From Planctomycetota bacterium (GTDB taxonomy: Bacteria; Planctomycetota; UBA8108; UBA1146; JAJFFE01), in contig JBFWWP010000024.1 in the NCBI GenBank assembly GCA_050246115.1, forward strand, positions 13,381 through 77,380: DNA of 64,000 bases. Direction: 5' to 3'. Of this stretch, positions 1,701-48,328 are shown piece by piece. How positions within the stretch are numbered: the first letter of the stretch is position 1; each line of letters opens with the position of its first letter. The notes below the pieces were generated by a model. The model did no database searches. It saw only the letters and a program-made list of their open reading frames with translations, and was not told where the DNA came from. The translations under genes were made by a program, and so were the position numbers.

Positions 1701-1846
1701 TGCTCTCCCGCTTTCCAGCCTAGTCCGGTCGTCCGAAGGTCCTCCGCGACCTCGACTCCCTCGGGAACGATATCGGACGACCCGCCTTCTGGAAAGAGGG
1801 CGCCGCCCGGAGCCCCGCCGATTCCGCCTCGGAGTTCGCGGCCGCT

Positions 1847-13342: not shown

Positions 13343-13427
13343 CAGTGTTCTTAGCGCAGTAGGGAGTGGAGGTGAAGAGCTCTCGCGGCCAGGGTGGGCG
13401 GGCTCACCCTGCTCGCTCAAATCCCGC

Positions 13428-13912: not shown

Positions 13913-15346
<1,434 letters not shown>

Positions 15347-15349
<3 letters not shown>

Positions 15350-15540: not shown

Positions 15541-15579
15541 GTTGCCGTCGGTCGCGGTGCACCCGCCATAGGGTCAGTG

Positions 15580-18336: not shown

Positions 18337-18412
18337 GTGGATCCGCTCTTTCTATGCCTTGTCACGCAACTTCCGATACTCAGCACCGCCCGCTCGGCGC
18401 GGCGTTCGCAAC

Positions 18413-19411
18413 TCAGGCGAGCGGTAGGACGAGGTCGCCCGCGTCCGCTTCCTTTGGCCGGCTCACCAGCCACGAGGTCCGACCCAGCTGCTGAGTGCTC
18501 CCGAGCGCGAGCGGTGTGACCCCTTCACGCGCGAGGATCAGCCGCACGTCGTAGCCCAACTCGAATCCGATGTAGTTCCGCACCGCAGCGCGAAGTCGAG
18601 CGATACTGCGGCCTCCCGGCAACAGCCGAACATAGTCCGCCAGGCCCATGGGCCCGAGCACGATACGGAATTTCTGCGTACACTCCCAGACACGTCCGCC
18701 CAAGACCACGGAGGTCCCCAAGACCGCGGTGTTCGAACCAGCCCCGAGGCGCGTCACCGAGTCGGCCGGCAGCTCGAGCCAATGCCCCACGAACTGCTCG
18801 ACCCGAGCGGGAACGCGAAAGTAGTCCTCGAGCACGATGGCGAGGCCCTCCGCCGACCGTGTCGGGTGGGCGTAGAGACCGGCGTGGTACAGCTTCGCCT
18901 GATGCGGAAACTCGTCGCGCTCGCGCAGCGACTCGGGTCCACGCCCGCACACCGAACCCACGTAGAGCTGGAATCGATCGCTGCGCGGGCGATCCAGGTG
19001 AACCGTCGGCTGGGCATCGGCCCAGGCCCGGTAGAACAGGCTAATGAGACGGTGGTGAAAGATGTCGAGGAAGCGCGCGAAGGTGCGATCGGAGTGATTC
19101 TGAATGCGATCGATCGCATGCTCGGTGAGGTGGAGCGGCAGCGGGCCATTCGGACCGAACAACCCCGGGAACAACACCTTGAGCCAGGGCGTCTCGCCAC
19201 GGTCTTTCCCGAAGCGCTCGAGCGTGGTCGGCGCGAACCCGAGAGACGGAGTCTGCCCCAACCGTACGGGGTCGTCCCCCGCCCGGCGCGAAGTTCCCAG
19301 GCGCGGGTGGTCCGCGAACACGCACTCGAGCCGGCGCAAAGCCTGATCCAAGTGGAATCGATGCGGCTCGCGAGCCAGCGCCTGCATCAGTGCCAGTTCC
19401 GCGTCAGGCAA
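18413..19411 (-). CDS. tssG: T6SS baseplate subunit TssG
   Basis: PHRFHLDQALRRLE, DDPVRLGQTPSLGFAPTTL, and its position after tssF. Start is TTG 19411 or ATG 19387. Confidence 0.9.
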   Translation of the reverse strand: MPDAELALMQALAREPHRFHLDQALRRLECVFADHPRLGTSRRAGDDPVRLGQTPSLGFAPTTLERFGKDRGETPWLKVLFPGLFGPNGPLPLHLTEHAIDRIQNHSDRTFARFLDIFHHRLISLFYRAWADAQPTVHLDRPRSDRFQLYVGSVCGRGPESLRERDEFPHQAKLYHAGLYAHPTRSAEGLAIVLEDYFRVPARVEQFVGHWLELPADSVTRLGAGSNTAVLGTSVVLGGRVWECTQKFRIVLGPMGLADYVRLLPGGRSIARLRAAVRNYIGFELGYDVRLILAREGVTPLALGSTQQLGRTSWLVSRPKEADAGDLVLPLA

Positions 19412-19501
19412 CCTTGCCCCTCCTGATCCGGAGTCGCGGGCTCAGGGCGACCCCGCGCCGCTTGGGGTCCGCCTCCCCAGCCGGCGTTCGGGCCTTCCCA
19501 T

Positions 19502-21373
19502 TCACAGGATCGGCCTGCGGCCCAGTCGTGCCGGCCATCGCACCACCTCACCCCGCTCGACGGTCTCGAGCACGGTCTCCGTAAAGGAGTTGAGTGAGAC
19601 GTAACGCGAGAAGAACTGCTCGAGCACGAGCCCGAGCAGAAACACCCCGGAGCCCTCGAACGCTGCCTCTTCGCAGCGCAGCACGATCTCCAGTCCCCTC
19701 CCAAAGGCAATCGGTCCGCCCGTGGCCACCCTCCTGACCACCGGGCTCGATCGCACGCTCTTCACGCCGTCGATCTGCTTGCGGACCGGCGCCTCGGCCA
19801 CGTTCCCGTACAGCATGAGCAGGTCGCGCAACGCCACCGCTCCGAGTTGCGGGTCGTTGTCGACGAGCGAGAGGTAGTTGAGGGACAGGTGACTGATCAG
19901 GCGCCACGCGACCTCACCCTCGGCAAACGATGCTCGTGGTCGCGTCGGTCCGTTCAAGCAACGCACCGCCTTCACGGGCGCCCCGGACTCCATGGACAAG
20001 TCCGTCCGGCCCTGACCCACCGCCATCTGCAGGGGCAAGTCGCGGTTCGTGCACAACGTCGTCAGGGAAAGTTGACGCAGTTCCGTGGAGTAGGGCGCTT
20101 CCCGGGTATCCACGAGTGAGACGAACACCTCGCTGCCAATGTAGGTGGACCGCAACGCCCCTTTGCGCTGCTTGGCCGACAGCATGCGGGGTATCCGACT
20201 CGCCACATAGTAGGCACGCTCGTCCGCGGACTCATCGAAATCGTTGGCGGCGTAGAACGGCAAGAACGCGCGTTCCTGGTCGGCACTGGTTCCGTGCCCA
20301 GTGACACTCTGCACTTGATAGACCTCGAAGTCGATCGGACGCGTACGATCCGGGACGACATGAAACTCGGTCTGCCGCTCCGACACGTGGATTCGGTCCG
20401 TGCGTTTCGGAAAGAGATTGATCACCGGGGAGCAGAACAAGGCGAACTGCTCGGTGCTCACTGCGTTCTCGAGCCGTGGATCCAAGCGATCGAATAGAAC
20501 GATGAGCTCGAGTTCGCTCTCGTTGCAGCGACTCACGGCCGGGGCGAGTCCGCGGAACTGAACGAAGAGAAACCGCTCCGGAAACGCGAAGTACTCGTGC
20601 AGCAAGCGGTAGGCGCGAAACGAACGCGACGCCGCCGGCAGCAACGCATCTTCATCTTCGAATCCAACGGGTCGGATGGGCGCCGTCGTGATGACCTCCT
20701 GCCACGACTTCGACCTCGAAGTCGGCCGCACCACGACCGCCTTGGCGTTGACGAGGAGCTGCTCGTAGAGGTGCATCGCTTGTTCGCCCGCGCCGCGCAG
20801 ATAGAGCACGAGATTCTCGAGCGCGAGGTCGCTGAACTTGGTTCCGGCCGTACAGCGCAGGCGGAGGCGCAGACCGGAGCGAACCCCTTGCAGGCCCTGC
20901 ACCTCAACCGAGGCGACGTCGCGCGACGTGTACTCCGCGGAGACGAACTCGAGCGGCCACAAATCCACCGCGTGGGCCGTTCGGTACTCGCACGGCGTCT
21001 GGTCGCCCTTTCCCAGCACACTGCGCAGCACGCTCCCGCGCTCGATGCGAAAGCCGTCCTTCAGCGACCCCTCGTTCAGATCGGCCTGGAACTGCACCAC
21101 GGCCATCGACGGAGTCGGGGCGAGGTACTCCGGGTAGATGATCTCCAGCAGATTCTGGGTGAAGCGCGGGAACTCGGCATCTTGGCGTAGTTGAATCCGG
21201 GCGGCGAGGAACGCGAACCCCTCGAGAAGCCGCTCGACATAAGGGTCGGCACACTCGAAGCCCTCGAGCCCCAGACGCCCCGCGATCTTGGGGTACTCCT
21301 TCGCGAACTCGCCCCCCATTTCCCGGAGGTGGCGCAGCTCCCGGTCGTAGTAGCGAAGAAGGCGCGGATCCAC
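19502..21373 (-). CDS. tssF: T6SS baseplate subunit TssF
   Basis: The N-terminus MDPRLLRYYDRELRHLREMGGEFAKEYPKIAGRLGL is diagnostic. GTG start. Confidence 0.95.
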   Translation of the reverse strand: MDPRLLRYYDRELRHLREMGGEFAKEYPKIAGRLGLEGFECADPYVERLLEGFAFLAARIQLRQDAEFPRFTQNLLEIIYPEYLAPTPSMAVVQFQADLNEGSLKDGFRIERGSVLRSVLGKGDQTPCEYRTAHAVDLWPLEFVSAEYTSRDVASVEVQGLQGVRSGLRLRLRCTAGTKFSDLALENLVLYLRGAGEQAMHLYEQLLVNAKAVVVRPTSRSKSWQEVITTAPIRPVGFEDEDALLPAASRSFRAYRLLHEYFAFPERFLFVQFRGLAPAVSRCNESELELIVLFDRLDPRLENAVSTEQFALFCSPVINLFPKRTDRIHVSERQTEFHVVPDRTRPIDFEVYQVQSVTGHGTSADQERAFLPFYAANDFDESADERAYYVASRIPRMLSAKQRKGALRSTYIGSEVFVSLVDTREAPYSTELRQLSLTTLCTNRDLPLQMAVGQGRTDLSMESGAPVKAVRCLNGPTRPRASFAEGEVAWRLISHLSLNYLSLVDNDPQLGAVALRDLLMLYGNVAEAPVRKQIDGVKSVRSSPVVRRVATGGPIAFGRGLEIVLRCEEAAFEGSGVFLLGLVLEQFFSRYVSLNSFTETVLETVERGEVVRWPARLGRRPIL

Positions 21374-21488
21374 TACTGCTCGGTTTCGTCGGTTCGCCGG
21401 ACCTGGCGGCGACGCGCCACGTACGGAGCGAAGTCGGTTTCTCGCGGGCTCGACCGTCGCGAAACCGCGACCCGCACAGCGAGGTACA

Positions 21489-22022
21489 CTAGGACGCCCC
21501 CCGCCCCGTGTGATCCTCGAGACTGATGTTGCCCGTCTCGAGGTCGAGTTGGGTCTTCAGGAACACGCGCTCCGACAGCGGCTGCGCCCAGAGTTCGCCT
21601 TCGATCTCGATCATCATCGCGTTGCGCCCCATGTCACCGTGGGCAACGTGCACGCGAACGTTCAACGTGCGCGGCACGAGCCGAGGCTCGAAGTTCAAGA
21701 GCACCCTCTTCAAAGCCGCCTCGATGGCCACGGGGTCGCTCCCAGAAAGCGTTCGACCGGCGAGATCGGGCATGCCGTAGTTGAGGACCGAACTCCTCAC
21801 GTCAGGGTAGTGATCGAGTTCGTTGGTTTGGTCAGCCTTGGGAGTCGCGGCCAGATTCGTGGTGTTCAGCAGCCAGACGAGATCCCGCAGCACGCCGGCT
21901 CGCATCTGCCGAACGGAGAGCACCCGGCGCTCCCGCGGCTCCTGCGTCTTGTCCGGTTCATCGTCGAGCAGCCGATCGAGGAGCGAGGGCTGAAGGCGCT
22001 CCTGAGGCGTCAGTTCAGCCAT
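21489..22022 (-). CDS. tssE: T6SS baseplate subunit TssE (gp25-like)
   Basis: From ATG 22020-22022: MAELTPQERLQPSLLDRLLDDEP...VLRDLVWLLNT. The upstream track-ORF extension overlaps tagJ. Confidence 0.9.
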   Translation of the reverse strand: MAELTPQERLQPSLLDRLLDDEPDKTQEPRERRVLSVRQMRAGVLRDLVWLLNTTNLAATPKADQTNELDHYPDVRSSVLNYGMPDLAGRTLSGSDPVAIEAALKRVLLNFEPRLVPRTLNVRVHVAHGDMGRNAMMIEIEGELWAQPLSERVFLKTQLDLETGNISLEDHTGRGAS

Positions 22023-22899
22023 CGATCCCCTCGTTGGCCTCGGCGTTGGTCGGCGGATTGTGCAGTTCGATCGTTCGTAGGTCCATGAGCGGGAACTCAC
22101 CCGACTCGGTGGCGAGCATTCGCTGACCCAGTCCGTGAAACACGCCCTCGCCCACTTCGAGCCAATCCGTGCGGCGCGCGAGCCGCAGTAGACCCTCGGG
22201 CTGCGACTCCGACCCGGGGTAGCGGGTAGGAACGAGCCCAACCACAGTGCCGCCGTTGACCCACGTGAATCGGGCCGGAGTCCAGACCGCATCGCGCAAG
22301 TCCGTTGGCGCCTCGAACTCGATGCGGTGGATCCGTTCGAACGGGATCCAGTAGTACTTCCCGTTTACCACCGCCTCGAGAACCGGCCCCAGACGCATGT
22401 CGGCGTCGGCGATCCACTCGAACTCCACACGGCGAGGTGCGCTGCTCGCCTCGTCACCGGGATCCACGACGGTCAGCGCGCCCGCAGATGGCGCCGCGGC
22501 CTCGAGAGCTCCTTCGCGCACCCGCTGCGCTTCCCCGTGGCGACCCGCGACCGTCAAAGCCAGCGCTTGATTCACCAACGCCATCCACTCGGCAGGCTGA
22601 CCGAAGAAGACCGGCGTCCGACGACCCGCGAAGACCTCGGCACGAAACGCCTCGCAGGCGATCGCCTCCTGATAGGTCTGGGCCATCACCAAGGTGCTCG
22701 CGTCCATCTCCCGACAGACGTTCAGCTGATTGAGAGCCCGGTCCCACTGCCCGGCCACACACAGCAGTTGGAACAAGAAGATGCGGTGCTTGACGACCGC
22801 CGGCTGCTCTCGGACCTGCGCCTGAAGCGCCGCCAAGGCCTCGTCCACTTTCCCTTGGTGCAGGAACTCCGTTGGACTTGCGGACACATGGCCCCCCAT
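22015..22899 (-). CDS. tagJ: T6SS accessory protein TagJ (ImpE family)
   Basis: RIFLFQLLCVAGQWDRALNQLNV and FEWIADADMRLGPVLEAVVNGKYYWIPFERIHRIEFEAPTDLRD...TRYPGSE. ATG 22897-22899. Confidence 0.85.
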   Translation of the reverse strand: MGGHVSASPTEFLHQGKVDEALAALQAQVREQPAVVKHRIFLFQLLCVAGQWDRALNQLNVCREMDASTLVMAQTYQEAIACEAFRAEVFAGRRTPVFFGQPAEWMALVNQALALTVAGRHGEAQRVREGALEAAAPSAGALTVVDPGDEASSAPRRVEFEWIADADMRLGPVLEAVVNGKYYWIPFERIHRIEFEAPTDLRDAVWTPARFTWVNGGTVVGLVPTRYPGSESQPEGLLRLARRTDWLEVGEGVFHGLGQRMLATESGEFPLMDLRTIELHNPPTNAEANEGIDG

Positions 22900-23133
22900 C
22901 CTGGAACGGCGTCCGCGACTGGACACCCTCGAGTTTCGCATGCGCTACGGCAGCCGCGGTACTGTGCTCGAGTCGGTCGAACGCGGTTTACGAGCGCGTC
23001 CGAGGTTGCGGCGTTCGTTACAGCCCACGTCCTACTTTGCACTCAAAGCCAGGAGCCCGACGGCTCTTCACAGGCCGTCGAGTTCCTGGCTCTCATCGAA
23101 GCGTTGTCGAAATCGCCCGTACCCGTGCGCCGC

Positions 23134-23619
23134 TTAGGCGTCGGCGTTGGCCGCGATGTCCCACGAGAAGACCTTCTCGGGCCCGCCGGAGCCGTCCGGC
23201 TTCTGCTCCTTGTACTTCACCGCGACCTCGGCGAAGTTCAGAATGATGTTCTCGGTCAACTTGTCTTCCCCGCCGCTGCCGCCCGTGCTCACTGCGGTGA
23301 CCATGACCTTCTTCATCTCGATCACCAGATACTCCAAAGGTACCTTGCCAGCCTTGCGCACCACGAGCTTCGCGGACTCGAAGTGATCGCCGTTCGCACA
23401 GAAGAGCTGCAACACGGTCGTGGCGTTGTCGACCCACTTGGTGATCGAAATGTCTTGGAAGCTGGCCTTGCCGGATCCGCCGCCGCCACCGGTGTGGAAC
23501 GACCCCGAGTTGGACATGCCCCAGCTCCACGCGAGGACGTCGATCGCCCCCTTGTAAGTCTTGTCCTGGGACTCGCCGCTGATCTTGCCCTCGATGACGA
23601 GGAACATATCGACTGCCAT
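23134..23619 (-). CDS. hcp: T6SS tube protein Hcp (TssD)
   Basis: MAVDMFLVIEGKISGESQDKTYKGAIDVLAWSWGMSNSG... 161 aa. Confidence 0.95.
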   Translation of the reverse strand: MAVDMFLVIEGKISGESQDKTYKGAIDVLAWSWGMSNSGSFHTGGGGGSGKASFQDISITKWVDNATTVLQLFCANGDHFESAKLVVRKAGKVPLEYLVIEMKKVMVTAVSTGGSGGEDKLTENIILNFAEVAVKYKEQKPDGSGGPEKVFSWDIAANADA

Positions 23620-23756
23620 GGCCGGTTTTCCTTTCCGAGGAAGGGCCGATGTTCACGCCCCTACCCAAAACTACGTTTCGCTCAGCCCCGCTCGACAGGC
23701 CCGGCCCTGCCGGACCCGGCGGGGAACCGCCCCCGCCCTCCACGACACGCGCTTCC

Positions 23757-23772
23757 GTGCACGCGCGTCGCC
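23757..23772 (-). promoter_or_regulatory. candidate sigma-54 promoter upstream of hcp
   Basis: The minus strand reads CTGGCGACGCGCGTGCAC. This gives TGGC-N8-TGCA with GG-N10-GC spacing exact, about 140 nt upstream of the hcp ATG. Confidence 0.35.
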
Positions 23773-23886
23773 AGGCCAAAGCACATGTCCTAAGTCACTT
23801 CACTCGAACGACTAAGCGCGAGCCACCGAACGAGCGCGGGTGTCGCGCGCCCAGAATTCGGACACTCCGCCAGTCCATCTCGTCGG

Positions 23887-25383
23887 CTACCCGCCCTTGG
23901 CGGAAGGCAGCTTCGAGACCAAACGCAGCGAGACCGTGAGCCCCTCGAGCTGGTAGTGGGGACGAAGGAAAAACCGTGAGGTGTAGTAGCCCGGATTCCC
24001 CTCGACTTCCTCGACGACCACTTCGGCCGCGGCCAACGGCTTCTTCGCCTTGGTCGTCTCCGACGAGTTGGCGGGATCCCCGTCGACGTAGTTGTTGATC
24101 CACTTCTGGAGCCACGCTTGCATGTCGGCGCGCTCCTTGAAGGAGCCGATCTTGTCGCGAACGATGCACTTCAGATAGTGCGCAAAGCGACAACTCGCGA
24201 ACAGGTACGGCAGACGTGCTGCGAGGTTCGCATTGGCCGTGGCGTCGGGATCATCGTACTCCGCCGGCTTCTGAACCGATTGGGCGCCGATGAACGCGGC
24301 GAAGTCGCTGTTCTTCTTGTGAATCAGCGGCATGAAACCGTTCTTCGCGAGTTCTGCCTCTCGGCGATCCGTAATCGCGATCTCGGTGGGACACTTCATG
24401 TCCACCCCGCCGTCGTCGGTGGGGAAGGTATGCGTCGGCAGCCCTTCGACGGCGCCGCCCGACTCGATGCCGCGAATCCGCGTACACCAGCCGTACATCT
24501 TGAACGCGCGGTTGACGTTCACCGCCATGGCGTACGCCGAGTTCGACCACGTGTAGTTGTTGTGGTCGCCGCCGACTTCCTCCTCGAAGTCGAACTCTTC
24601 GACCGGTGCCGTCTTCGCACCGTAGGGCAGTCGCGCCAGGAAGCGCGGCATGGCGAGCCCCAAGTAGCGCGAGTCTTCGGACTCGCGCAACGACCGCCAC
24701 GCAGCGTACTCCGGAGTCTGGAAGATCTTGGTCAGATCCCGCGGCCCACTCAGCTCGTTCCACGAATCCATGTTCATGACCGTTGGCGCCGCGCCGGCCA
24801 GGAAGGGGCAGTGCGAAGCAGCGCTCACCTGCGCCATCTCCGACAGTAGTTCTACATCCGGTGGAGTGTGGTCGAAGTGATAGTCCCCGACCAAGCACCC
24901 AAAGGGCTCGCCGCCGAACGTACCGTACTCGTTCTCGTACACCATCCGGAAGATGGGGCTCTGATCCCAGGCGGTACCCTTGAACTTCTTCAGGGTCTTG
25001 CCGAGATCCTTCTTCGAGATGTTGAGCACGCGGATCTTCAGCATCTCGTCGGTCTCGGTGTTGTTCACCAAGTGGTGAAGCCCGCGCCAGGCCCCCTCGA
25101 GTTTCTGGAACTCCGCGTTGTGCAGAATCTGATTCACCTGTTCGGTGAGCTTCTGGTCGATCGCCGCGATCATGGCCTCGATGGTCTTGACCGCATCGGT
25201 GGAGACGAGCTCACTCCGGTCCAGCACTTGCGAGGCGAGGGTGGCGACCGCTGCCTGCACCGCTTCCTGAGCGCGATCGGACTTGGGCTTGAACTCCTTC
25301 TTCAGGAGTGAGGCGAACTCGTCCTTCTCGATCGTGACCGCTTCGCCTTGCTGCTGCTGTTGCTGTGGATTTTCTTGTGCCAT
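23887..25383 (-). CDS. tssC: T6SS contractile sheath large subunit TssC
   Basis: 498 aa. [28 protein letters not shown]-terminal [27 protein letters not shown]. Confidence 0.97.
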
Positions 25384-25392
25384 CGATTCCTC

Positions 25393-25911
25393 CTACGCCG
25401 GGGCGTCGCCGGACTCTTCGGGTTTCGGGGCCGCAACCAAAGACTGCAGTAGGGTCGGATCTTTGATCGCCCGCGAAATCAGTTCCTCAGCCCCGGTCTT
25501 CCCGTCCATGTAGGTGAGTAGGTTCGAGAGCTGGGTTCGCGCATCGAGCAACTTGCTGAGCGCGCCCACCTTCCGAGCAACCGCCGCCGGCGAGAAGTCG
25601 TCCATGCTTTCGAAGGTCAAGTCCACCGCCAGCTCACCCTCGCCAGTGAGCGTGTTGGGCACCCGGAACGACACTCGCGGTTTCATGGATTTGAGGCGCT
25701 CGTCGAAATTGTCGACGTCGATCTCGAGGAACTTCCGGTCCGCGACCGCCGGCAGCGCCTCCTCCGGGTTGCCCGACAAGTCTGCGAGCACGCCCATGAC
25801 GAAGGGCAGCTGGACCTTCTTCTCGGCGCCATACACCTCGACGTCGTACTCGATCTGTACGCGCGGCGCGCGATTGCGTGCCACGAACTTCTGACTACTC
25901 TGCTTGGCCAA
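25393..25911 (-). CDS. tssB: T6SS contractile sheath small subunit TssB
   Basis: AKQSSQKFVARNRAPRVQIEYDVEVYGAEKKVQLPFVMGVLADLSG, IDVDNFDERL. TTG start at 25909-25911. Confidence 0.93.
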   Translation of the reverse strand: MAKQSSQKFVARNRAPRVQIEYDVEVYGAEKKVQLPFVMGVLADLSGNPEEALPAVADRKFLEIDVDNFDERLKSMKPRVSFRVPNTLTGEGELAVDLTFESMDDFSPAAVARKVGALSKLLDARTQLSNLLTYMDGKTGAEELISRAIKDPTLLQSLVAAPKPEESGDAPA

Positions 25912-26130
25912 GGCAACCCCCTAGGGTCTGGGGCCCGCCGTTGGGCCCGGTGGTGATGACGGTAGCAGCAACCGGAGCTTTGCGAGCCAGTCGGACTCGC
26001 CCAAAATCCCTTGGACGGAACCGGTCCGCGCAACTCCCAACCTTTGGACGAATCGAACTCGAGCAGCATCCGCGACCATCGGACGGAACTGGCCCCGCCC
26101 CCCCTCACACCAGAGCGGCCGGACACCGAA

Positions 26131-27201: not shown

Positions 27202-27202
27202 A

Positions 27203-27802
27203 TCATGCTCCCCCGAGGATCTGCTCGTTCATCGTCTCGAGCCCGAGCTTCTCCACGTAGTGAATGTAGCAGGTCGGTTGATACAACTCTTCGGCCCCGA
27301 GCTGCTTGCTCGGCCCCGCCAGTGTCGCCTGCCCGCCCAGAGACTTCAGGTTGAAGATCGCTTTCCGATTGCAGAACGCACAGGTCGTCTTGACCTCTTC
27401 GACCGTGTCCGCCAGTTCGATCAAACGACGGCTCCCGGGAAACAGATGCGTTCGGAAGTCTGTCCGCAGGCCGTAGCAGATGACGGGAATGTCGAGCTTA
27501 CGCGTCACTTCACGCAATTGATCGACGACGCTGGGCGAGAGGAACTGCGCTTCGTCGACCAACACGCACTGACTGCCCGAGATCCGGTCGAGATCGAGCT
27601 GGGTGTCGTCCTGCACCGTGATGTGAGCGGCGCGGCTGAGGCCCGCGCGCGAGACCACTTCGTCGGCACCGAAACGAGTGTCGAAGCTCGGCTTGATCAC
27701 GACGCAGGCCTTGCCCTGGCGCTCATAGTTATGAGCCACGGCCAGCAGGTTGAGGGTCTTGGCGCTGCCCACGGTTCCATAACGAAAGTAGAGTTTGGCC
27801 AT
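27203..27802 (-). CDS. tdk: thymidine kinase (type II, E. coli Tdk-like)
   Basis: MAKLYFRYGTVGSAKT, CVLVDEAQFL, DIPVICYGLRTDFR, and C-terminal CAFCNRKA...CYIHY zinc-ribbon-like segment. Its stop lies 1 nt before the tssA ATG. Confidence 0.9.
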   Translation of the reverse strand: MAKLYFRYGTVGSAKTLNLLAVAHNYERQGKACVVIKPSFDTRFGADEVVSRAGLSRAAHITVQDDTQLDLDRISGSQCVLVDEAQFLSPSVVDQLREVTRKLDIPVICYGLRTDFRTHLFPGSRRLIELADTVEEVKTTCAFCNRKAIFNLKSLGGQATLAGPSKQLGAEELYQPTCYIHYVEKLGLETMNEQILGGA

Positions 27803-27842
27803 GATTGCCCATCCCTATCGCGACGGGCGGCGCTACGGTGCG

Positions 27843-28811
27843 CTACCGGTCGATTTCGAACTCGAGCACCGCCCCGACCGAAGCGCCTGGCTGAAACGGG
27901 CCCGACTCGATCCGCCGCCGGAAGTCCCCGAAGCCATCGATCGGCAGCTTGCCCTTGCCGCGTACCAGATCACAAACGGAGCCGTCGGGGAACTCCCCGC
28001 CTAGAGAAGCCGCGAAGTCTTCAGCACCCGGCACGCGGTAAACGAGGTCGACAGTGGTCGCCCGTCCCGCCATGGGCGCACACCACACCGTCGGCAAAGC
28101 CGAGAAAGACGGGTGCAGTTTGCGCAAGACCTCGATCCACAGGTCGACCTCGCGGGCACACGAAGTCGCGTCGCCCGTCACGGGGACGCGCGCCGCGCGC
28201 AGCACCGGCCCCGGCGCTGCATTCGCGAAGTGCCGCACCCACGATCGCAGCCGCCATAGACCCCGCACCCACAGGTCGGGCGCGTCCTGGGCGTACAAGC
28301 GATCGACCCAAGTGGCCGCCGGTGAAGTCCGGAACTCCCGCGCACGCGCCTCGACCGCCGAGTCGGAGTCGGGCTCGCCCTGTAACACCGATCCGCGAAT
28401 CTGTTCGTAGAAACTGTCCGGGCTCGGACACCGGCGCAGTTCGGCGAGGCGCGTCTCGAGTGCGCCCCACAGCGGCTCCAAGCGAGTCGTCGAGCCGTGG
28501 AGACCGAGATCGGCCCGCGCCAACGTGACGAACACCGCGAACGGAAACCGGCGCGTACCACTCGCGTCGTGGCTATCGACCACGCACGCGACAATGACCT
28601 GAGCGCCGCCCGGGCTCGTGAACGTCCAACGCCGCGTGCGTTCATCGTGCCCCGGGAGCGCATCGCGCGCCGACGCGAAGTCGTTGCCGGCGTCCAGCCA
28701 CTGCTTGAACTGCAGGGGCAGGCCGTCGTAACACCCATGGCGCAAGAACTCCTTGGACAGCGAGAGCTTGCCGTAGGCCCCCAAATCGTAGGATTTCAAC
28801 GCGTCGCCCAT
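27843..28811 (-). CDS. tagF: T6SS-associated protein TagF (ImpM/DUF2094-like)
   Basis: From ATG 28809-28811: MGDALKSYDLGAYGKLSLSKEFLRHG, resembling the GFYGKLP..GDF start of TagF. It sits directly after tssM (16-nt overlap). Confidence 0.72.
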   Translation of the reverse strand: MGDALKSYDLGAYGKLSLSKEFLRHGCYDGLPLQFKQWLDAGNDFASARDALPGHDERTRRWTFTSPGGAQVIVACVVDSHDASGTRRFPFAVFVTLARADLGLHGSTTRLEPLWGALETRLAELRRCPSPDSFYEQIRGSVLQGEPDSDSAVEARAREFRTSPAATWVDRLYAQDAPDLWVRGLWRLRSWVRHFANAAPGPVLRAARVPVTGDATSCAREVDLWIEVLRKLHPSFSALPTVWCAPMAGRATTVDLVYRVPGAEDFAASLGGEFPDGSVCDLVRGKGKLPIDGFGDFRRRIESGPFQPGASVGAVLEFEIDR

Positions 28812-31800
28812 CCCGTCCAGCCGAAGTCGGGGCGCTCGGGAAGGCCGCGTCCCTCCGGGAAGCGAATCAGGTGCAGCGCGATCGGCACGTTGACTTCGTC
28901 CGTCGACTTCCGCAGCTCGTGCAGAAGCAGCCATACCTCCCGGTTCTTGTCGGCAGCATGGAGCTCATCGTGATCCCAGAGTGCGCGGGCGAGGGCCAAC
29001 CATCCCTTGCGCCGCCCTTCCTCGATGGGGAAGGGGTGATCACTCAACTCGGTCTGCCCGCGCACCATGGTCAGCACCAATCGCCCGGCGTCGCTGCCTC
29101 CGCGGTAGAGCCACTGGAACTCCTTCGTCCGGGCCGAGCCATCGACCGTGCCGGTCGCGTTCAGTGAAGCGTTCGCGTTGCCGAAGACGACGTTGAAACC
29201 GCTGATCCGTTCGGTCTCGCTGGCGATGGCGTACTGACCCACGGGCGGGAACCGCAGTTCACCGTACTCCCGTTCCTTCAAGTTCGCGGTGAACGTGAAC
29301 TTCAGGTCGGCCGCCGTCCCGTCCAAGTACATGTGGCGCCCCAACCCAAGGACAGAGTCGATGAACCTTCGCACGCTCCCCAAGTTCGGGTCGGGCTCGA
29401 GACGGAGACTGATCTTGGTCGCACCGGCGTCGCGGTAGAACACTCCCCATTGATCATCGGCTTCGCGGATCGCCTGGAGAAAGCGATTGAAGCCTTCACT
29501 GTCGATGTCTCGCGCGGGCCGCTGGGTGCCGTTGTCGGCCACGCGATCGGCGAACGGGGCCCGTTCCCAAAGGCGCTGACCTGCGAAGCGTTCGCCCAAC
29601 GCATGCCAGAGGGTTCGAAACTCCGCGAGGAGCTTGTCCTCGACGAGCGCTTGCCCGCGGCTCACAATGTCGTTGACGCGCCGCCCGATGAGATCTTGCT
29701 CGAGCGCTGGCCGGTCGACGAACAGTTGCGCGCACGCTGCAATCTGATCGCGACGGGTGATCTCGCCGGCCTTCTCGAGCAACTGCTCGCGAAACCGGCT
29801 CGGCTCGGAGAGTCGCGTCATGCCGTCGCGAAACTTCTCGAACGCGGTCGCCAACGCCGGCAGCGTATCGGGGTCGTAGGCCTGGAGCAGCTGCGCAAAC
29901 TTGCGTCGCAGTTCGCCGAGGCTGCTATCGAGAGCGCCGAGCGGAGCGTACGGGTCGCTCGGTAGCTTGCCCTCGGGCAGCGAATGAAACTGCGGGATGT
30001 CACTGAAGTCGACGTGCCGCCGCAGGGTTTCTACAGCGCGCCTCAACGCCTCCGAAAAGCTGCCGCTCGCCGCCAGCCCGAAGCCATTCCTCAACGCCTC
30101 GCGATACTTGTCGAAGTCCAAGTCCTCGAGGCCGCGGGTGGGATCGAGCGGCTCCCGCCACTGCGCATCCCACTCCTGTGCATAGCCCTCGAAGTACTGC
30201 CGAAGCAGATCCTGCGCTTGCGCGCGGAGCGCCTGCCGCGCGGGGTCAGTCAAGAGGCGCGCAAGGTCTGGATCCTCGGCACGCCCCAGGAGCGAGTCGC
30301 CATGACGCAGAACTCGCTCCGCAACTTCACGGGTGTGTCGGGCTTCGACGGTCCACGCCCGTGCCAAACGCAAGACTTCGACCTTCGTGCTCGCTTGCGG
30401 GCAGAAGTCGGCGAGCACTTGCTGCGGGCCGCGCTGGACGACGACGCGGGGGTAGCCGACGAGCGACCGAGCCACGAGCACCTGTCGCGCCAGCTCGGTG
30501 ACTGCGCTCACGTGCTCGGAGAGTCGTTGGAAGGTACCGTTCGGATCCTCGAGGCGCTTTCGCGCCGCTCCCAGCGCTTGGTCCAGGCTGGCGAGCCGCG
30601 TGCTCAGCGCCTGGTCGAGTGCGTGAATCCGCTCCGGCGCCGAGTGCGACTCGTCCACGACCGCATCGCGGACCGCAACGTAGCAGCTCTCGAGGGCCTC
30701 CGATCGAGTTCCCTGTTCGGCGGTGAAAACGAGTTTGTAGGGTCCGGTTGCGTTGGTACTGTCCGAGCTCAGTGCGAATCCTCGGCGATCGGCGCTGAAG
30801 AAGCGCTCACGCACCGCGTCGCTTTGGCCGCCGAACTTGGACGCGAGGCTCGTGGCATGACCCGCCTGCTGCATGACGGCGGCGTAGCCCCACTCCTCAC
30901 CGGTCGGCGACAGCGCGGCCAGGGCCTGCAGTCGCTCGGCGCAGGTGTCGCGAAGTTTGTTGATGGTCGTGTGGTGTTCACCGAGCGCCTGCGACTGAGT
31001 GAAGGCGACGTAGCCTTGGGCCTCGCGGATCCGCGCGAAGAAAGTCTCCGACGCCGCCCCGAGCTTCGAGAGATCGTCGACCCAGCGCTTCACCCGTTCA
31101 TAGCCAACGCTCAGCTCGGTCACCGCGCCCAGTCCACGACTGTCGAAGAGGCCGAGCACTTCGGTGTACGCCGTCTCACAAGTGCGATCGATGGCGCATG
31201 CACGGATCCACGCTGCGCCAGCCACGACCTCACGATCGGGAGCTGGGACGCCCGGCTGTGCGTCCACGCCGAGGAGACCCGTACTCCCATCGTCCCGGAG
31301 GCCGACGATGGTGGCCTCGCCGTCCGCCGCCAGTTGCCAGTAGCTCGCGTAGTCTGCAATCAAGCGGCCGAGTCGTGCCTGGATCTCGGCATCCGTGGCG
31401 ACCGGCTGCAGCTGACCGCGGAAGAACGCGTCTCTCAGCTGCGGCCGCCCCAACCGCGACGCCGAGCAAACGTCCAGGAGCTGCTGATACTGCTCCTCGA
31501 GGATCTTCACCTCGTCGGCGCTGAGCGCGCCCCGGCCGAGCAACAGCGCGGTGAGCGGCTGCAGGGTCCATGGAAGCGCCTGGCGTTCGGCCCGCGCTGC
31601 GGGCACGGTCGGATCGCCGGCCGGTTCCTTCGTCAGCATGACGATGAGCTGCAGCGCTTGGTGGTAGGCCTCTTGCTCGGGCCAGTTGCGCGGTCGGCCT
31701 TTGTCGAACGCCTGGATCGCGCGGTCGCCGAGCAACCGGAAAGTGGTCGACTCCACGAGTTTCCGGTACGCGTCGCCCAGGCGCGGGAGGGTCCGTCCTT

Positions 31801-33439
31801 CTTCCACGAACCCCACGAGGAGCCCAGGGGCAAGCGATCCCTTCGCCTCGGCGTTACAGATCGCATCACGCAGCGCGGTGGCTTTTGCGAGCGGCAGATC
31901 GGCAAACCCCAGCGTCGGACGTGCGACGGTCTCGGCCACGGCCTTCTCGAACTCGTCCAACGCGCCCGACAGACCGGACACGCCGCGGTTCTGGACGACG
32001 CCGCCGTAGATGAGCAACCCCAGCAAGAGCAAGCCGACTCCGGCCGCCGCGCCGTAACCGACGCGCTCGATCGTGCGCCGTCGCTTGAGCGCCAACCGCG
32101 TCGGTTGCACGAGGCCACGCTCCTTGAAGAGCTTCTTGCGATAGAAGTCGCGAACGAAGAACGCGGTGGACTTCTGGAAGATCGATGACAGGTCGGCTTC
32201 GTCCGGGCCGCCCGCGGCGGCGCGCAGCAGGTTGGCGCACGCCTTGACGATGGGCTTCCCCTTCTGCAGCCCACTCGAGAAGTACAGTCCCCGGAAGAAC
32301 ACCGGGTCGAGATAGCGATTCTCGACGAAGATCTCGCCCAAGTACCGCTGGACCGGCTCTTCGAGCGCGCCGAACTCGTCCGGGAAGGCGTACAAACGGT
32401 CGACGTCCGGCGCCTCGGGGTCGTCAGCCAAGAACCGGTTCCGCCACAGATGGAGCCGCTGCCGAACCCCGCGAAAAACACCGGGCCACGCCTCCGGCCG
32501 AAACGCTTCGTCGTACGGAGCCGGCTTGGACCACCCGAAGAGTTGGCGCTGCTCGAGTGCCGGCAGCCGCTGGAAGAACTCGGTGAACCCGAGCACCAGG
32601 TCGCACTTGGTCACGACGATGTAGACGGGAAACTGCACTTCCAATTCTTGCTGCAGCTGCGTCAGCTTGTCGCGGATCGTCTTCGCCTTCTGCTCCATCT
32701 CGGAAGGCGTGTCGCCGAGCAGGGAGGTCGCCGGGATCGCGACGATCACGCCGTTGATCGGACACCGCGGCCGATAGCGACGCAGGAGGCCGAGGAACTC
32801 TTTCCACTCCTGCGCATCGGGAGCGTTGCGCTCTTCGAAGGTGAACCGTCCGGCGGTGTCGAGGATGACCGCCTCGTTGGTGAACCACCAATCGCAATTG
32901 CGAGTTCCGCCGGCGCCGCTGAGGGCCTCGGTGCCGACCGGAAACTCCAGGCCCGAGTTCTTCAGAGTCGTGCTCTTGCCGCACGCGGGCTCGCCGATGA
33001 GCATGTACCACGGGAGGCTGTAGAGATTCATCCCCGTGGCCTTGAGCTCGTTCACGGCGCGATTCCACTGCTCGCGGACCTCGGCAATGGCTTGGCGGCG
33101 TTCCTCGTCGGCGACGCCTGCGCCCCCGTCACCGCTCTCGAGCGCGCTGGCGAGTTCTGCGCTGCGACGCTTCTCGAAGCGCTTGAGCACCCACTGGATC
33201 ACGAACAACGCCAGCGCAACGAGCGCGATCACGACCAAGACCGCGATCGCCACCTTGGTGTTCCAGAGGCTCGCGAGACCCGCGGCTACGCCGCTGCCGG
33301 CGACGACGATCACCGCTTGGTAGAGGAGCGGTAGCTCTCGGAATGTGCCGACCAACCGACCCAGCATTCGACGCCTCCCCTGCCCACTTGGCTCGACGAC
33401 CTTCGTGCCTCCACGGTCACCGGAGGCCGCGTCCCCCAC
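28796..33439 (-). CDS. tssM: T6SS membrane complex protein TssM (IcmF), unusually long
   Basis: N-terminal TM pair, Walker A GEPACGKST, ILDTAGR, a third TM VGYGAAAGVGLLLLGLLIYGGVV, then about 1070 aa predicted to be periplasmic. Start is GTG 33439 or ATG 33367. Confidence 0.93.
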   Translation of the reverse strand: MGDAASGDRGGTKVVEPSGQGRRRMLGRLVGTFRELPLLYQAVIVVAGSGVAAGLASLWNTKVAIAVLVVIALVALALFVIQWVLKRFEKRRSAELASALESGDGGAGVADEERRQAIAEVREQWNRAVNELKATGMNLYSLPWYMLIGEPACGKSTTLKNSGLEFPVGTEALSGAGGTRNCDWWFTNEAVILDTAGRFTFEERNAPDAQEWKEFLGLLRRYRPRCPINGVIVAIPATSLLGDTPSEMEQKAKTIRDKLTQLQQELEVQFPVYIVVTKCDLVLGFTEFFQRLPALEQRQLFGWSKPAPYDEAFRPEAWPGVFRGVRQRLHLWRNRFLADDPEAPDVDRLYAFPDEFGALEEPVQRYLGEIFVENRYLDPVFFRGLYFSSGLQKGKPIVKACANLLRAAAGGPDEADLSSIFQKSTAFFVRDFYRKKLFKERGLVQPTRLALKRRRTIERVGYGAAAGVGLLLLGLLIYGGVVQNRGVSGLSGALDEFEKAVAETVARPTLGFADLPLAKATALRDAICNAEAKGSLAPGLLVGFVEEGRTLPRLGDAYRKLVESTTFRLLGDRAIQAFDKGRPRNWPEQEAYHQALQLIVMLTKEPAGDPTVPAARAERQALPWTLQPLTALLLGRGALSADEVKILEEQYQQLLDVCSASRLGRPQLRDAFFRGQLQPVATDAEIQARLGRLIADYASYWQLAADGEATIVGLRDDGSTGLLGVDAQPGVPAPDREVVAGAAWIRACAIDRTCETAYTEVLGLFDSRGLGAVTELSVGYERVKRWVDDLSKLGAASETFFARIREAQGYVAFTQSQALGEHHTTINKLRDTCAERLQALAALSPTGEEWGYAAVMQQAGHATSLASKFGGQSDAVRERFFSADRRGFALSSDSTNATGPYKLVFTAEQGTRSEALESCYVAVRDAVVDESHSAPERIHALDQALSTRLASLDQALGAARKRLEDPNGTFQRLSEHVSAVTELARQVLVARSLVGYPRVVVQRGPQQVLADFCPQASTKVEVLRLARAWTVEARHTREVAERVLRHGDSLLGRAEDPDLARLLTDPARQALRAQAQDLLRQYFEGYAQEWDAQWREPLDPTRGLEDLDFDKYREALRNGFGLAASGSFSEALRRAVETLRRHVDFSDIPQFHSLPEGKLPSDPYAPLGALDSSLGELRRKFAQLLQAYDPDTLPALATAFEKFRDGMTRLSEPSRFREQLLEKAGEITRRDQIAACAQLFVDRPALEQDLIGRRVNDIVSRGQALVEDKLLAEFRTLWHALGERFAGQRLWERAPFADRVADNGTQRPARDIDSEGFNRFLQAIREADDQWGVFYRDAGATKISLRLEPDPNLGSVRRFIDSVLGLGRHMYLDGTAADLKFTFTANLKEREYGELRFPPVGQYAIASETERISGFNVVFGNANASLNATGTVDGSARTKEFQWLYRGGSDAGRLVLTMVRGQTELSDHPFPIEEGRRKGWLALARALWDHDELHAADKNREVWLLLHELRKSTDEVNVPIALHLIRFPEGRGLPERPDFGWTGWATR

Positions 33440-33482
33440 GTCACTCCGACCCGACCCACCGGACCGTCTCCGTGTACTGCAC

Positions 33483-34175
33483 CTAGCGCGACGCCACTCC
33501 CAAGATGCGATCGAGCGCTTGGTGTAACATCTCGAAGTTCGACTGGGTCACGAAGTGCGCGCTCCCCATCGCGAGCAAGATGGCGCCCGCCAGGATCACG
33601 GCGTAGCGCGCCGCGCTCACCACGGGCAGCTTCGTCATGTCCCGCTCGACGTTCTGTTCGTAGACCCCCGGACTCAGCAGATCGGACTTCTTCGTGATCC
33701 GGTTGGGGATCTGGCTGTAGAGTCGTTGCTGCAGCTCCTGACGCTCCTCGGGACGCGACCGATAGCGTCCGCGGAAGCCGAGAGACAAGCAGATGAAGTA
33801 GATCTCAGCGAGCTGATCCTCGTCCGGACGAACTTCCTTGAGCCGCTCGAAGAAGTCCTCGCCCGCGATCGAGGTTCCGAAGAAGTGTTGCTCGAGGAGT
33901 TCGTCTTCCCACTCCTGCTGCCCGCGCCAGGAGGTGTTCAACGCGACCTCGTCCGCGAGCGCAACGATGGGGTAGCGCGCCTTCTGGTAGATCGTCTTCA
34001 GATCCGGGTAGGCGCGTAGCTCCGCCTCCTGCTCTTCGACGAGTTGCACCAAGTTGCGTCGCAGCCAGGTGGCGTCGGTCTCGATTCGACCCGCGTTACG
34101 CCTGAACGTGGTCAGGAACAGGAAGAACTTCGCGCAGACATCGGCGACCCGAGGCTCGTGTGTTTCACTCGTCAT
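33483..34175 (-). CDS. tssL: T6SS membrane protein TssL (DotU family)
   Basis: FFLFLTTFRRNA, YPIVALADEVAL, FFGTSIAGEDFFERL, IYFICLSLGFRGRY, and C-terminal TM AVILAGAILLAMG. Confidence 0.87.
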   Translation of the reverse strand: MTSETHEPRVADVCAKFFLFLTTFRRNAGRIETDATWLRRNLVQLVEEQEAELRAYPDLKTIYQKARYPIVALADEVALNTSWRGQQEWEDELLEQHFFGTSIAGEDFFERLKEVRPDEDQLAEIYFICLSLGFRGRYRSRPEERQELQQRLYSQIPNRITKKSDLLSPGVYEQNVERDMTKLPVVSAARYAVILAGAILLAMGSAHFVTQSNFEMLHQALDRILGVASR

Positions 34176-35545
34176 GGAGAGGCGTCCTTCCCGCTCACGA
34201 CGAACAAGGAGTACTTCACCTTACCCTCCTCGATCCCGCGTCCGAACAGCGCGAGATCTCGCCCCTCGCGGGCGGCGAGCCAGAACTTACCCTCGCGGCG
34301 AATCTGCCAGTACAGCAGCCCCTTGCGGTCCGGGAGTTGCGACGGGATCCGCTCGACGCGGACCTTCTCGATGCCGCTCAATCGATCGCGCTGCACCTCG
34401 GCCACGTCGGCACGCGAGGCGAGCTTCAGCCGCCCCACGGCTTGCTCGGTGGCCTGCACCTCCTGATCCGCCTCCGCGCCCAGGTAGAGGGCAACGTCAT
34501 GCGCGAACCAGCCTTCGTCCAGCGGACAATGCTGGCCTTCGTCGTAGGCCTCGAACGGTCGGCGCACGAAGGAAGTCGGGACGACGCTGTCCAGGAGCCG
34601 CCGCGCCTCCTGCGCAGCCTCGGTGAAGCAGTCTCCGAGTGCGTCGTGATCGTAGCCCATGAGTTCCGGCGGCGTCCGATTCGTGTCGAAGATCGCCAGC
34701 TGACCGATCAGTCCACACAATTGAAGGTAGATGTTGAGAGGACGCAATCCGGGGAGCGCAACCAGCGGTCGGAAAACGGCGAGCGCCGAGTTGACCACGT
34801 GCAGCTTCATCATGAGTTCCGCATCGCCCCCACCCCCCTCACCGGCCCAGGTGATCCTACGGGCCGCGACCTGTTCTCCCAGCGCTCGCGACTTCGCAGC
34901 CAATACGCTGGTGAGATCTCGAAACAGCCCCGTCAGTCGGGCCGACGCGGCGAGCCTCGTCACGGGTGGGACTACGGTCTGGAGCAGCGTCGGCAGTGGC
35001 TCCTCCTCGCCGGCAAGCAACACCGCGCCCAAGCGCAGGGTCTGGAACCCGGCCCGATCTTCGGAGTCGAGGAGCACGCGCGCCTGGAGCTGCCGGTAGG
35101 CGATGGGGTACTCGTTGCTCCCCGTGTTTTCGTCCATCTCGCGCAGGATCTTCACGCGATAACGACGAACTCCTTGCTCCTGCTCCGCGTCCTCGTAGAC
35201 GTTCGGGCTGCGCTGTCGTAACTCGGGTACGCCGACGTACAGAGTCAGCGTCTCGCCGCCGTCCGTGAAGAACTCGCGGATCTCGCGACTGGGAACCTCG
35301 GTCTCGTCGGGGACCCGAATTCGCGTCCCGTCCTCGAGAATCGCATCGAGCCGCTTCACCCGCACGACGTAGTTCTTGAGCGCTTCGGTGTCGAGTTCCA
35401 AGGTCGAGATGCCCCACCCGAACGGGTCGGCGCCGAGCGCGTCCTGCGCCAACCGGCCGTGGACGTGCTTGGTGAACGCCTGCATGTGCTGCGGCGTCAG
35501 GAACATCCCTTCCGACCAGTGGAGTGGCGCGGGACCAAAGGTCAT
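34172..35545 (-). CDS. tssK: T6SS baseplate protein TssK
   Basis: MTFGPAPLHWSEGMFLTPQHMQAF. ATG 35543-35545 overlaps the tssJ stop (ATGA). The track ORF starts 5 codons earlier at a GTG. Confidence 0.9.
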   Translation of the reverse strand: MTFGPAPLHWSEGMFLTPQHMQAFTKHVHGRLAQDALGADPFGWGISTLELDTEALKNYVVRVKRLDAILEDGTRIRVPDETEVPSREIREFFTDGGETLTLYVGVPELRQRSPNVYEDAEQEQGVRRYRVKILREMDENTGSNEYPIAYRQLQARVLLDSEDRAGFQTLRLGAVLLAGEEEPLPTLLQTVVPPVTRLAASARLTGLFRDLTSVLAAKSRALGEQVAARRITWAGEGGGGDAELMMKLHVVNSALAVFRPLVALPGLRPLNIYLQLCGLIGQLAIFDTNRTPPELMGYDHDALGDCFTEAAQEARRLLDSVVPTSFVRRPFEAYDEGQHCPLDEGWFAHDVALYLGAEADQEVQATEQAVGRLKLASRADVAEVQRDRLSGIEKVRVERIPSQLPDRKGLLYWQIRREGKFWLAAREGRDLALFGRGIEEGKVKYSLFVVSGKDASP

Positions 35546-36036
35546 TGGATCAGTCCCCACAGCTTCTTGGGCGACCCGGGGTCGAGTTCGATCGTGGTGT
35601 CGCCCAATCGCAGCACCAGGTGGCAGTGAGTGCTCAGCGGCGGCACCTTGCGATTGCGCACCAAGCGCAACTGGGAGTCTTTCTCGCCCGGTTGCTCGTA
35701 GAAGGCGTAGATCACGAACCCCGTCACGGGGTAACCCTTCGGCGGTCGCACCTTTGCGTCCGGGAACGTGAACTTGCCCTCACCCGGACTCACGGATTGC
35801 GTGACGACCAATCCATCGTACTCGTCCTCGTCGTGCATGCGATTCTCGAACCACTCGTGAGCACTCGTCTCTTCGAGCTTCTTCGAGTTCTCAGCCGTCG
35901 TCCACACGAGGTCGACCCGCACCGCGTCTTTGACCCCGCGATTCATCCCAGGCTCCGGGAGTAGGTCGATCTTGTAGCCCCGACACGCGCACCCACAAAG
36001 CCCCGCGAGGAGTAGCACTGTTCCTAGCCTGAGCAC
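35542..36036 (-). CDS. tssJ: T6SS outer-membrane lipoprotein TssJ-like
   Basis: Lipobox LLLAGLCGC, about 160 aa, located between fha and tssK. Sequence similarity to SciN was not verified. Confidence 0.65.
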   Translation of the reverse strand: MLRLGTVLLLAGLCGCACRGYKIDLLPEPGMNRGVKDAVRVDLVWTTAENSKKLEETSAHEWFENRMHDEDEYDGLVVTQSVSPGEGKFTFPDAKVRPPKGYPVTGFVIYAFYEQPGEKDSQLRLVRNRKVPPLSTHCHLVLRLGDTTIELDPGSPKKLWGLIQ

Positions 36037-36186
36037 GTCACGCCCTCTCCGAGAAGTCAGGGATCGAGTTCACATCGTCACTCGTCTTCGCCCCAGCGAA
36101 CGCCCATCGGTCACTCGACGGTAGCCGCTCCCCTGCCGACGACCGACTCGAGTCGATCGGGTCGTTCGCCCGGCCACGGAAGCGCA

Positions 36187-42760: not shown

Positions 42761-42768
42761 TCGCGCCT

Positions 42769-44551: not shown

Positions 44552-44998
44552 TCACCCTTGCACGGAGAAGGTCGAACTCGCGGGCGGCTTGGAAACGGGC
44601 GATTGCTTCTCGCGGCGGGCCTTCTCGACGGCTTCGCGCCACATGTCACGAATCTGGCGCAGCACCTGGATTCCCTCGTCGATCTTCACGATGTCACCCT
44701 CGATGTTGCCTTCGAAGAAGCGCGTGAAGGTGAACTGATACAGGCTCTGTAGCCTCTGAAACAGCTCGAGGCCGATGGCCGGACTCAAGGCTCCCATCAG
44801 CTCGAGAACGATCTTCTGCGCGCGAACGAGTTGGTCGTGGCGACGATCCGCTTCACCCTCCGCCCCCTTCTCGAGTTCGAGCCGGGCGCCTTCGGCAAAG
44901 CGCACGCCGCCGTCGAGGAGGAGCAGGAGTAGGTCATCCTTGGCCGCGGTCTCGATCTGGACCTGACGATAGCGTTGCGTGGGGTGGTGTCCGCTCAC
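44552..44998 (-). CDS. fliS: flagellar export chaperone FliS
   Basis: YRQVQIETAAKDDLLLLLLDGGVRF...LVRAQKIVLELMGAL...LQSLYQFTFTRF. Confidence 0.88.
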   Translation of the reverse strand: MSGHHPTQRYRQVQIETAAKDDLLLLLLDGGVRFAEGARLELEKGAEGEADRRHDQLVRAQKIVLELMGALSPAIGLELFQRLQSLYQFTFTRFFEGNIEGDIVKIDEGIQVLRQIRDMWREAVEKARREKQSPVSKPPASSTFSVQG

Positions 44999-48096: not shown

Positions 48097-48328
48097 TGCG
48101 CGCCGCCTCTCCGTTCGTGAGCACGATTCGACCCCGACCCGCGCGATCGACGCACCTCGCGACCGCCCGAGACGCAACGTGGCGGTTCGATGTCCGTAGT
48201 CCAGCGCGCCATGCCCCGGCAAGCGCGGCATGCGCTTGATTCGGGACCTAGGAGACTGTCGGAAAGCCCATTCCGACGCGAATCGCCGATGAACGCGCCA
48301 ACTCCGAAAGATGCTCAGCTCGACGTGT

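Follow-up and report, generated by a model that had tools for sequence, protein, structure and literature searches.

What is a thymidine kinase gene doing in the middle of a type VI secretion system (T6SS) cluster? The question is raised by a 64,000-nt stretch of a planctomycetal genome, hereafter the window, in which tdk lies between tagF and tssA (Table 1). The initial annotation of this locus suggested a passenger captured at the junction of two H1-type blocks and offered two alternatives, a salvage function co-regulated with the T6SS and a repurposed NTPase. Our analysis indicates that tdk is very probably a vertically inherited housekeeping passenger, enclosed by T6SS blocks that were reshuffled in this lineage.

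Table 1. Features of the tdk locus and its flanks, with window coordinates
Feature	Position	Strand	Basis
ribBA	465..1931	minus	PF00926, PF00925; next in the conserved tdk-M32-ribBA row; same order in G004
M32 carboxypeptidase gene	1847..3358	minus	PF02074, E 1.2e-165
T6SS sheath/baseplate block: tssB, tssC, hcp, tagJ, tssE, tssF, tssG, clpV	15580..25911	minus	Pfam matches
tssA, 356 aa	26131..27201	minus	TIGR03363, 255.3 bits; PF06812; homologs align from residue 1
tdk, TK1-type thymidine kinase, 199 aa	27203..27802	minus	PF00265, E 1.9e-38
Putative Shine-Dalgarno-like GGGGGAG for tssA	27208..27214	minus	Read directly; function putative
tagF-tdk spacer, 40 nt	27803..27842	minus	Read directly
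tagF-like gene, longest ORF 363 aa	27843..28934	minus	PF09867 (TagF_N), 33.2 bits
T6SS membrane-complex block, fha to tssM	28796..37464	minus	Pfam matches
tssM	28796..33439	minus	Pfam match
tssL	33483..34175	minus	Pfam match
tssK	34172..35560	minus	Pfam match
164-aa ORF at the tssJ position, no family match	35542..36036	minus	
fha	36187..37464	minus	Pfam match
fliS	44552..44998	minus	PF02561; conserved upstream flank
fliD	45007..48231	minus	PF07195, PF02465; conserved upstream flank

The cluster runs along one strand from 37464 to 15580 in the order fha, the 164-aa ORF, tssK, tssL, tssM, tagF, tdk, tssA, tssB, tssC, hcp, tagJ, tssE, tssF, tssG, and clpV. Direct reading of the junctions confirms the 40-nt and 1-nt spacings given in the initial annotation and places all three genes on the minus strand, which had gone unstated. 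The tagF stop codon (TAG, 27843 to 27845) is followed by the spacer and by the tdk ATG at 27802; the tdk stop codon (TGA, 27203 to 27205) is separated by the single base 27202 from the tssA ATG (27201 to 27199). The tagF-like gene scores 35.4 bits against TIGR03373, under the cut-off of 41.2. Homolog alignments of its longest ORF start only at residue 40 to 51, and the true start is likely an in-frame ATG at 28811 that overlaps the tssM stop codon (28796 to 28798). Placed side by side, unaligned, and compared by eye, the 40-nt spacer and the tdk upstream regions of relatives show no evident similarity. Base composition shows no step at tdk and none at the T6SS borders.

The H1-T6SS of Pseudomonas aeruginosa consists of fha1-tssJKLM-tagF and following genes and of tssA1-B1-C1-hcp1-tagJ1-tssE1F1G1-clpV1. 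Both blocks are present here with the same gene content and internal order. Whereas they are divergent in the H1-T6SS, in the window they follow one another on a single strand, separated by tdk. A third arrangement is seen in a relative, G001, where the blocks are also in tandem but in the order opposite to that of the window, and tdk is not between them.

The genome (G000) is metagenome-assembled, in 68 contigs and 93% complete, and its origin would fit a chimera in which the tagF-tdk-tssA joins arose during binning or assembly. However, the reading frames are clean on either side, and Logan contigs of four public runs, one of them possibly the source of this DNA, contain the same joins when compared with window positions 25500 to 29500. 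One 16,309-nt contig from a second sample of the same study (run X2) covers the whole 4 kb with 6 differences. In an independent study, each junction is crossed by contigs that are identical or nearly so (0 to 3 differences per record): tdk/tssA is bridged by record 21 of X3 (26968 to 27532) and record 27 of X4 (27165 to 27595), and tagF/tdk by record 23 of X3 (27511 to 28467) and record 28 of X4 (27578 to 27873). Because both junctions recur in the contigs of an independent study, we reject an assembly artifact, the probability of which we consider close to nil. The presence of the same arrangement in samples of two studies further indicates that it is stable in the population.

The gene product is a full-length member of the thymidine kinase family. 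A Pfam profile search matches it to PF00265 over profile positions 2 to 176 of 176, with 132.5 bits against a cut-off of 20.6. Against the NCBIfam thymidine kinase equivalog NF003300 it scores 191.6 bits, a marginal miss of 3.4 bits at a cut-off of 195, and it falls still further below the cut-offs of four other tdk equivalog models in NCBIfam. Thymidine kinase families are its sole matches in Pfam and NCBIfam, and no T6SS protein family profile in either collection matches it. Together with the TagF_N match on one side and the TIGR03363 match on the other, and with all four sequence motifs quoted in the initial annotation present in the protein, these results uphold the reading of a full-length Tdk homolog between tagF and tssA.

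The nearest solved structures are all thymidine kinases. The top one is 2orw, the Thermotoga maritima enzyme, with an E value of 1.9e-15 from the single sequence and of 1e-24 from a 21-sequence profile. The full-length match to the TK1-type bacterial kinases, of which 2orw and 1xx6 are solved examples, includes the P-loop domain and the zinc-binding lasso domain. The Asp-Glu pair of the VDExQF strand, the GLRxDF loop, and the CxxC...C..H/C zinc ligands all align with the solved enzymes, at an identity of about 25 to 30%, estimated from the alignments and not a computed figure. The catalytic acidic pair, D83-E84, aligns with IDEVQF of 2orw. In an alignment of 21 Tdk sequences that took in Planctomycetota, Bdellovibrionota, Chlamydiota, Acidobacteriota, and others, the invariant positions are G9, G12, S13, A14, K15, D83, E84, R113, C141, C144, and C178. 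The last three are zinc ligands of the lasso domain, aligned to the Cys pairs of solved thymidine kinases; the fourth ligand is H181, which is His or Cys in relatives. At 199 aa, the protein is among the shortest of eight compared (198 to 211 aa), and the length of the C-terminal tail varies among relatives. The pattern of P-loop, catalytic acidic pair, and zinc ligands reads as that of a working enzyme family.

TK1/Tdk-type enzymes convert thymidine and ATP to dTMP. A profile search of the 93% complete genome yields a single PF00265 match, so this is the sole tdk found, with no second copy elsewhere. A thyA gene is present on another contig, and neither a dNK-type kinase nor thyX was found in the genome. 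The presence of thyA implies that dTMP is also made de novo and that Tdk is a salvage enzyme. By these features, Tdk is predicted to be an ordinary salvage thymidine kinase of a known family, with the enzyme itself unchanged.

With the Tdk protein as query, one ortholog each was found in 32 of 40 related genomes, at 59 to 75% identity. All four same-family genomes have one, and these are the best matches (66 to 75%); in the neighboring family f2, 27 of 28 genomes do. TssA has a far narrower distribution in this set, being found in 4 of the 40 genomes (G001, G002, G003 with a weak match, and G035) and in 0 of 28 in f2. The presence of tdk in nearly all of f2, where TssA is not found, indicates that the tdk lineage is independent of the T6SS. 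A maximum-likelihood tree built from 36 Tdk sequences pairs G000 with G004 as sisters (support 96/90), G004 being a member of the same family that gave no TssA match. The terminal branch of G000 is 0.15 long versus 0.5 for G004, and the five family f1 rows do not resolve as one clade. No closer relatives emerged: none exceeds 75% identity among the related genomes, which included no other species of this genus, and none exceeds 72% in scans of genome contigs and metagenome contigs, which may omit records of this genome or of one very near it.

The P-loop is the one feature that departs from the textbook motif. As noted initially, it reads GTVGSAKT (G9-T-V-G-S-A14-K15-T16), with the first Gly and the Lys-Thr present and Ala at the second Gly position of the Walker A consensus GxxxxGK[ST]; the corresponding stretch of 2orw is G-P-M-Y-S-G-K-T. 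This departure, along with the position of the gene between tagF and tssA, would be consistent with a Tdk-like protein that has lost kinase function and serves the T6SS as an accessory or regulatory ATPase. However, the form G-x-x-[GS]-S-A-K-[TS] is shared by all 109 rows of related Tdk sequence, drawn from relatives' loci and genome-contig loci with some genomes counted twice. Among the best 80 metagenome relatives of Tdk, the position is Ala in 77, Gly in 2, and Ser in 1. The Ala form is found across Planctomycetota, Bdellovibrionota, Chlamydiota, and others, with T6SS genes near almost none of them. As far as the sequences go, the P-loop Ala characterizes the Tdk subfamily as a whole and is no peculiarity of the present gene. 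Further, the catalytic Asp-Glu pair, the Arg-rich loop, and the zinc ligands are invariant, and the Tdk branch of G000 is shorter than that of its sister. Loss of kinase activity would also abolish thymidine salvage, since this is the only tdk in the genome. Repurposing as an NTPase finds no support in these data, and we consider it extremely unlikely. The Ala-Walker-A subfamily may be of specialist interest in its own right: it is widespread, appears biochemically uncharacterized, and to our knowledge has no assayed member.

The position of tdk is best understood by comparison with its relatives. Its conserved downstream neighbor is the M32 carboxypeptidase gene, which directly adjoins tdk in 28 of 29 relatives' loci, in 21 of 80 genome-contig loci, and in 10 of 80 metagenome loci. 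In the window, the two genes are about 24 kb apart, and the adjacency in nearly all relatives implies that this separation is derived. The intervening stretch holds tssA to clpV together with genes for a sigma-54 activator, a radical-SAM protein, an ECF sigma factor, a Ser/Thr kinase, an FG-GAP protein, and a sheath-like fusion. The order in G004 is fliD-fliS-HAD-PD40, 3 kb, and tdk-M32-ribBA; fliD-fliS precede tdk by about 6 kb, with no T6SS between. In the window, fliD-fliS and M32-ribBA flank the entire T6SS region and keep the same orientation relative to tdk as in G004.

Two other family members locate the T6SS relative to these flanks. In G001, one contig carries, all on one strand, tssA-tssB-tssC-hcp-tagJ-tssE-tssF-tssG-clpV, 10 kb of other sequence, fha-tssK-tssL-tssM-tagF, a kinase gene, 8 kb, and tdk-M32. 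In G002, one contig carries tagF, a kinase gene, 5.5 kb, and tdk-M32, and another carries fliS-PD40, 7 kb, and tssA-tssB-tssC. In both, the T6SS island lies entirely upstream of tdk, at 5 to 9 kb from it. These layouts indicate that the T6SS island of the family sits between the flagellar genes and tdk.

By contrast with G000, no T6SS gene is found beside tdk in any of the 29 relatives' loci, the 80 genome-contig loci, or the 80 metagenome loci. Of these 80 metagenome loci, 44 extend 1 kb or more to either side of tdk and 18 do so to one side only. The reciprocal search gives the same picture. Apart from G000, 21 of 400 sampled Planctomycetota genomes yielded a TssA match; among the 23 tssA loci formed by these 21 and those of G001 and G002, none has tdk or tagF within about 1.5 kb upstream of tssA, a few having a shorter upstream stretch. 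The recurrent co-location across genomes that would mark tdk as a T6SS component is thus missing. Within the sampled genomes, tdk lies inside the T6SS here and nowhere else, the pattern that the initial annotation had set in advance as pointing to rearrangement only and against a functional link.

The same comparisons bear on whether tdk could be a xenolog, brought in horizontally along with a T6SS block to take the place of the native copy. Transfer of T6SS clusters is common, and TssB and TssC of G000 are slightly nearer to those of G035, a genome of another family (82%), than to those of family members (76 to 80%). The tdk gene itself tells a different story: its best matches are the four same-family genomes, its sister in the tree is one of them, and its orientation relative to both conserved flanks is retained. 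We regard replacement by a xenolog as very unlikely. Tdk appears to be a vertically inherited ortholog of the tdk of related Planctomycetota, and nothing suggests horizontal arrival or accelerated change.

In this family, the T6SS island lies between the late flagellar genes fliD-fliS and the tdk-M32-ribBA row. We propose that, in the lineage of this genome, tdk stayed in its ancestral neighborhood while the T6SS modules were re-ordered around it, so that fha to tagF came to end 40 nt before tdk, and tssA to clpV, with its accessory genes, came to lie between tdk and M32. Arrival of the tssA-clpV block downstream of a tdk that already lay just beyond tagF is more likely than movement of tdk into the T6SS. 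Rearrangement of T6SS genes around tdk makes the gene most likely a passenger and no new secretion component. The synteny data agree with the first suggestion of the initial annotation insofar as tdk is a passenger at the junction of two H1-type blocks; the word captured probably does not hold, as tdk seems never to have moved into the T6SS. The accessory genes around the T6SS blocks show no homology between G000 and G001, and this complete difference leaves room for fresh acquisition of one block; a second, independent acquisition may thus have contributed.

Housekeeping genes are known to become enclosed in genomic islands after local rearrangement, and tdk resembles such cases: inherited vertically, it retains its wider synteny, and it is the modules of the island that have changed order around it. 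It differs from the usual enclosed passenger in its unusually tight fit, with a 1-nt gap and the putative ribosome-binding site of the next gene in its last codons. The close packing and the tssA Shine-Dalgarno-like sequence inside tdk show an arrangement trimmed and tolerated, one that is also compatible with selection for co-expression. More generally, the locus cautions that tight operon packing with a secretion system may stem from a lineage-specific reshuffle around a housekeeping gene and is no evidence of shared function.

A repeat search at the block borders found no repeats or mobile-element traces flanking tdk. The sole strong repeat near a block border is a 187-nt sequence present in the window at 15346 to 15532 and 59036 to 59222, in copies that are 97% identical and have 36-nt terminal inverted arms 115 nt apart. 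It resembles a miniature inverted-repeat element, and one copy separates clpV from the sigma-54 activator gene where the two converge. It has 125 copies (at least 150 nt, at least 90% identity), spread over 41 contigs of the genome, and so marks no breakpoint in particular. At the other edge of the island, the HAD phosphatase and PD40 pair (42278 to 44483) is inverted in order and orientation relative to G004, a second small rearrangement.

The junctions also have consequences for expression. The initial annotation saw no room for a promoter or terminator between the three genes, and our scans agree. A consensus scan, with the promoter types of Planctomycetota lying outside that consensus, found no promoter-like site on the strand of the gene from tagF to tssA. 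No credible terminator was seen: one weak terminator-like hairpin lies inside tagF, against 2.3 expected in shuffles, and none lies in the 40-nt spacer. A search for the sigma-54 consensus TGGCAC-N5-TTGC with up to 2 mismatches gave 47 matches versus 51 expected, with none upstream of tdk or tssA, and is uninformative. In relatives, tssA is preceded by free intergenic DNA; in 23 of 23 other Planctomycetota loci it heads its block and has a free upstream region, and here that region has been lost. With an upstream region of their own missing for both tdk and tssA, the two genes would probably be transcribed from the fha-to-tagF unit or from a promoter inside a coding region, and tdk is probably co-transcribed with T6SS genes. 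The Shine-Dalgarno-like GGGGGAG lies 6 nt before the tssA ATG, inside the final tdk codons (..L-G-G-A-stop), and may allow tssA to be translated by coupling to tdk. Judged by its sequence context, tssA here must depend on upstream transcription and probably also on translational coupling to tdk.

Such an arrangement could reflect selected co-regulation, with tdk fixed in the T6SS operon so that salvage can use thymidine from lysed prey. The shared strand, the narrow spacing, the lack of a terminator-like site between the genes, and the tssA Shine-Dalgarno-like sequence in the tail of tdk are in line with this idea, as are an intact and conserved tdk and the recurrence of the arrangement in samples of two studies. 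However, the arrangement is confined to this genome among all the tdk and tssA loci surveyed, family members with the same T6SS hold tdk at a distance with unrelated genes between, and tight packing is the usual outcome of deletion after rearrangement, for which selection is unneeded. Among the papers listed on thymidine kinase and type VI secretion, none points to a functional link between tdk and the T6SS in its title or the opening lines of its abstract; in those parts, they concern the genetics or effectors of Bacteroides, Prevotella, and Acinetobacter, in whose genetics tdk serves as a counter-selection marker. The suggestion that salvage is co-regulated with the T6SS gained no support, given that none of the other loci surveyed shows this gene order, and we consider selected co-regulation unlikely. 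It is decidedly unlikely that thymidine salvage is here under T6SS regulation, through the operon and the coupling to tssA, with uptake-side nucleotide recycling switched on just when neighbors are lysed; if true, this would be a first case of a T6SS operon functionally recruiting a metabolic salvage gene.

Several other genes in and around the cluster deserve mention. A gene for a sigma-54-dependent response regulator or activator (13913 to 15349, plus strand; Sigma54_activat, HTH_8) is convergent with clpV and is a candidate regulator of the T6SS cluster. A minus-strand ORF overlapping it (13832 to 15745) has no family match and is probably no gene. Between clpV and M32, the minus strand (5059 to 13420) encodes a 760-aa B12-binding radical-SAM protein, the ECF sigma factor, a 934-aa Ser/Thr kinase that contains TPR repeats, and a 744-aa FG-GAP/ASPIC protein. 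The kinase gene that follows tagF in G001 and G002 is different from this Ser/Thr kinase gene. Directly upstream of fha and on the same strand lie two large amidohydrolase-family genes (37617 to 42259, minus strand; 446 aa and 1105 aa), for neither of which a homolog was found in the T6SS region of G001. No vgrG is found in the main T6SS cluster within the window; the genome has five VgrG-like (Phage_GPD) matches, on contigs C8, C31, C4, C3, and C2, all outside that cluster.

The window also contains a 542-aa ORF (3427 to 5055, plus strand) in which a T6SS_VipA domain (residues 59 to 160) is fused to a VipB N-terminal domain (residues 233 to 522), with no match to the VipB_2 C-terminal domain. 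It is only 28 to 39% identical to tssB and tssC of the cluster and is possibly a divergent sheath-like protein made as a single chain. The genome has one other match to it, at 31% identity, on contig C3, a few kilobases from the VgrG-like match of that contig. A second, very divergent tssB/tssC-like pair (28 to 29% identity) occurs in another Planctomycetota genome (G298, locus L210, 2788 to 3921), divergently placed upstream of tssA.
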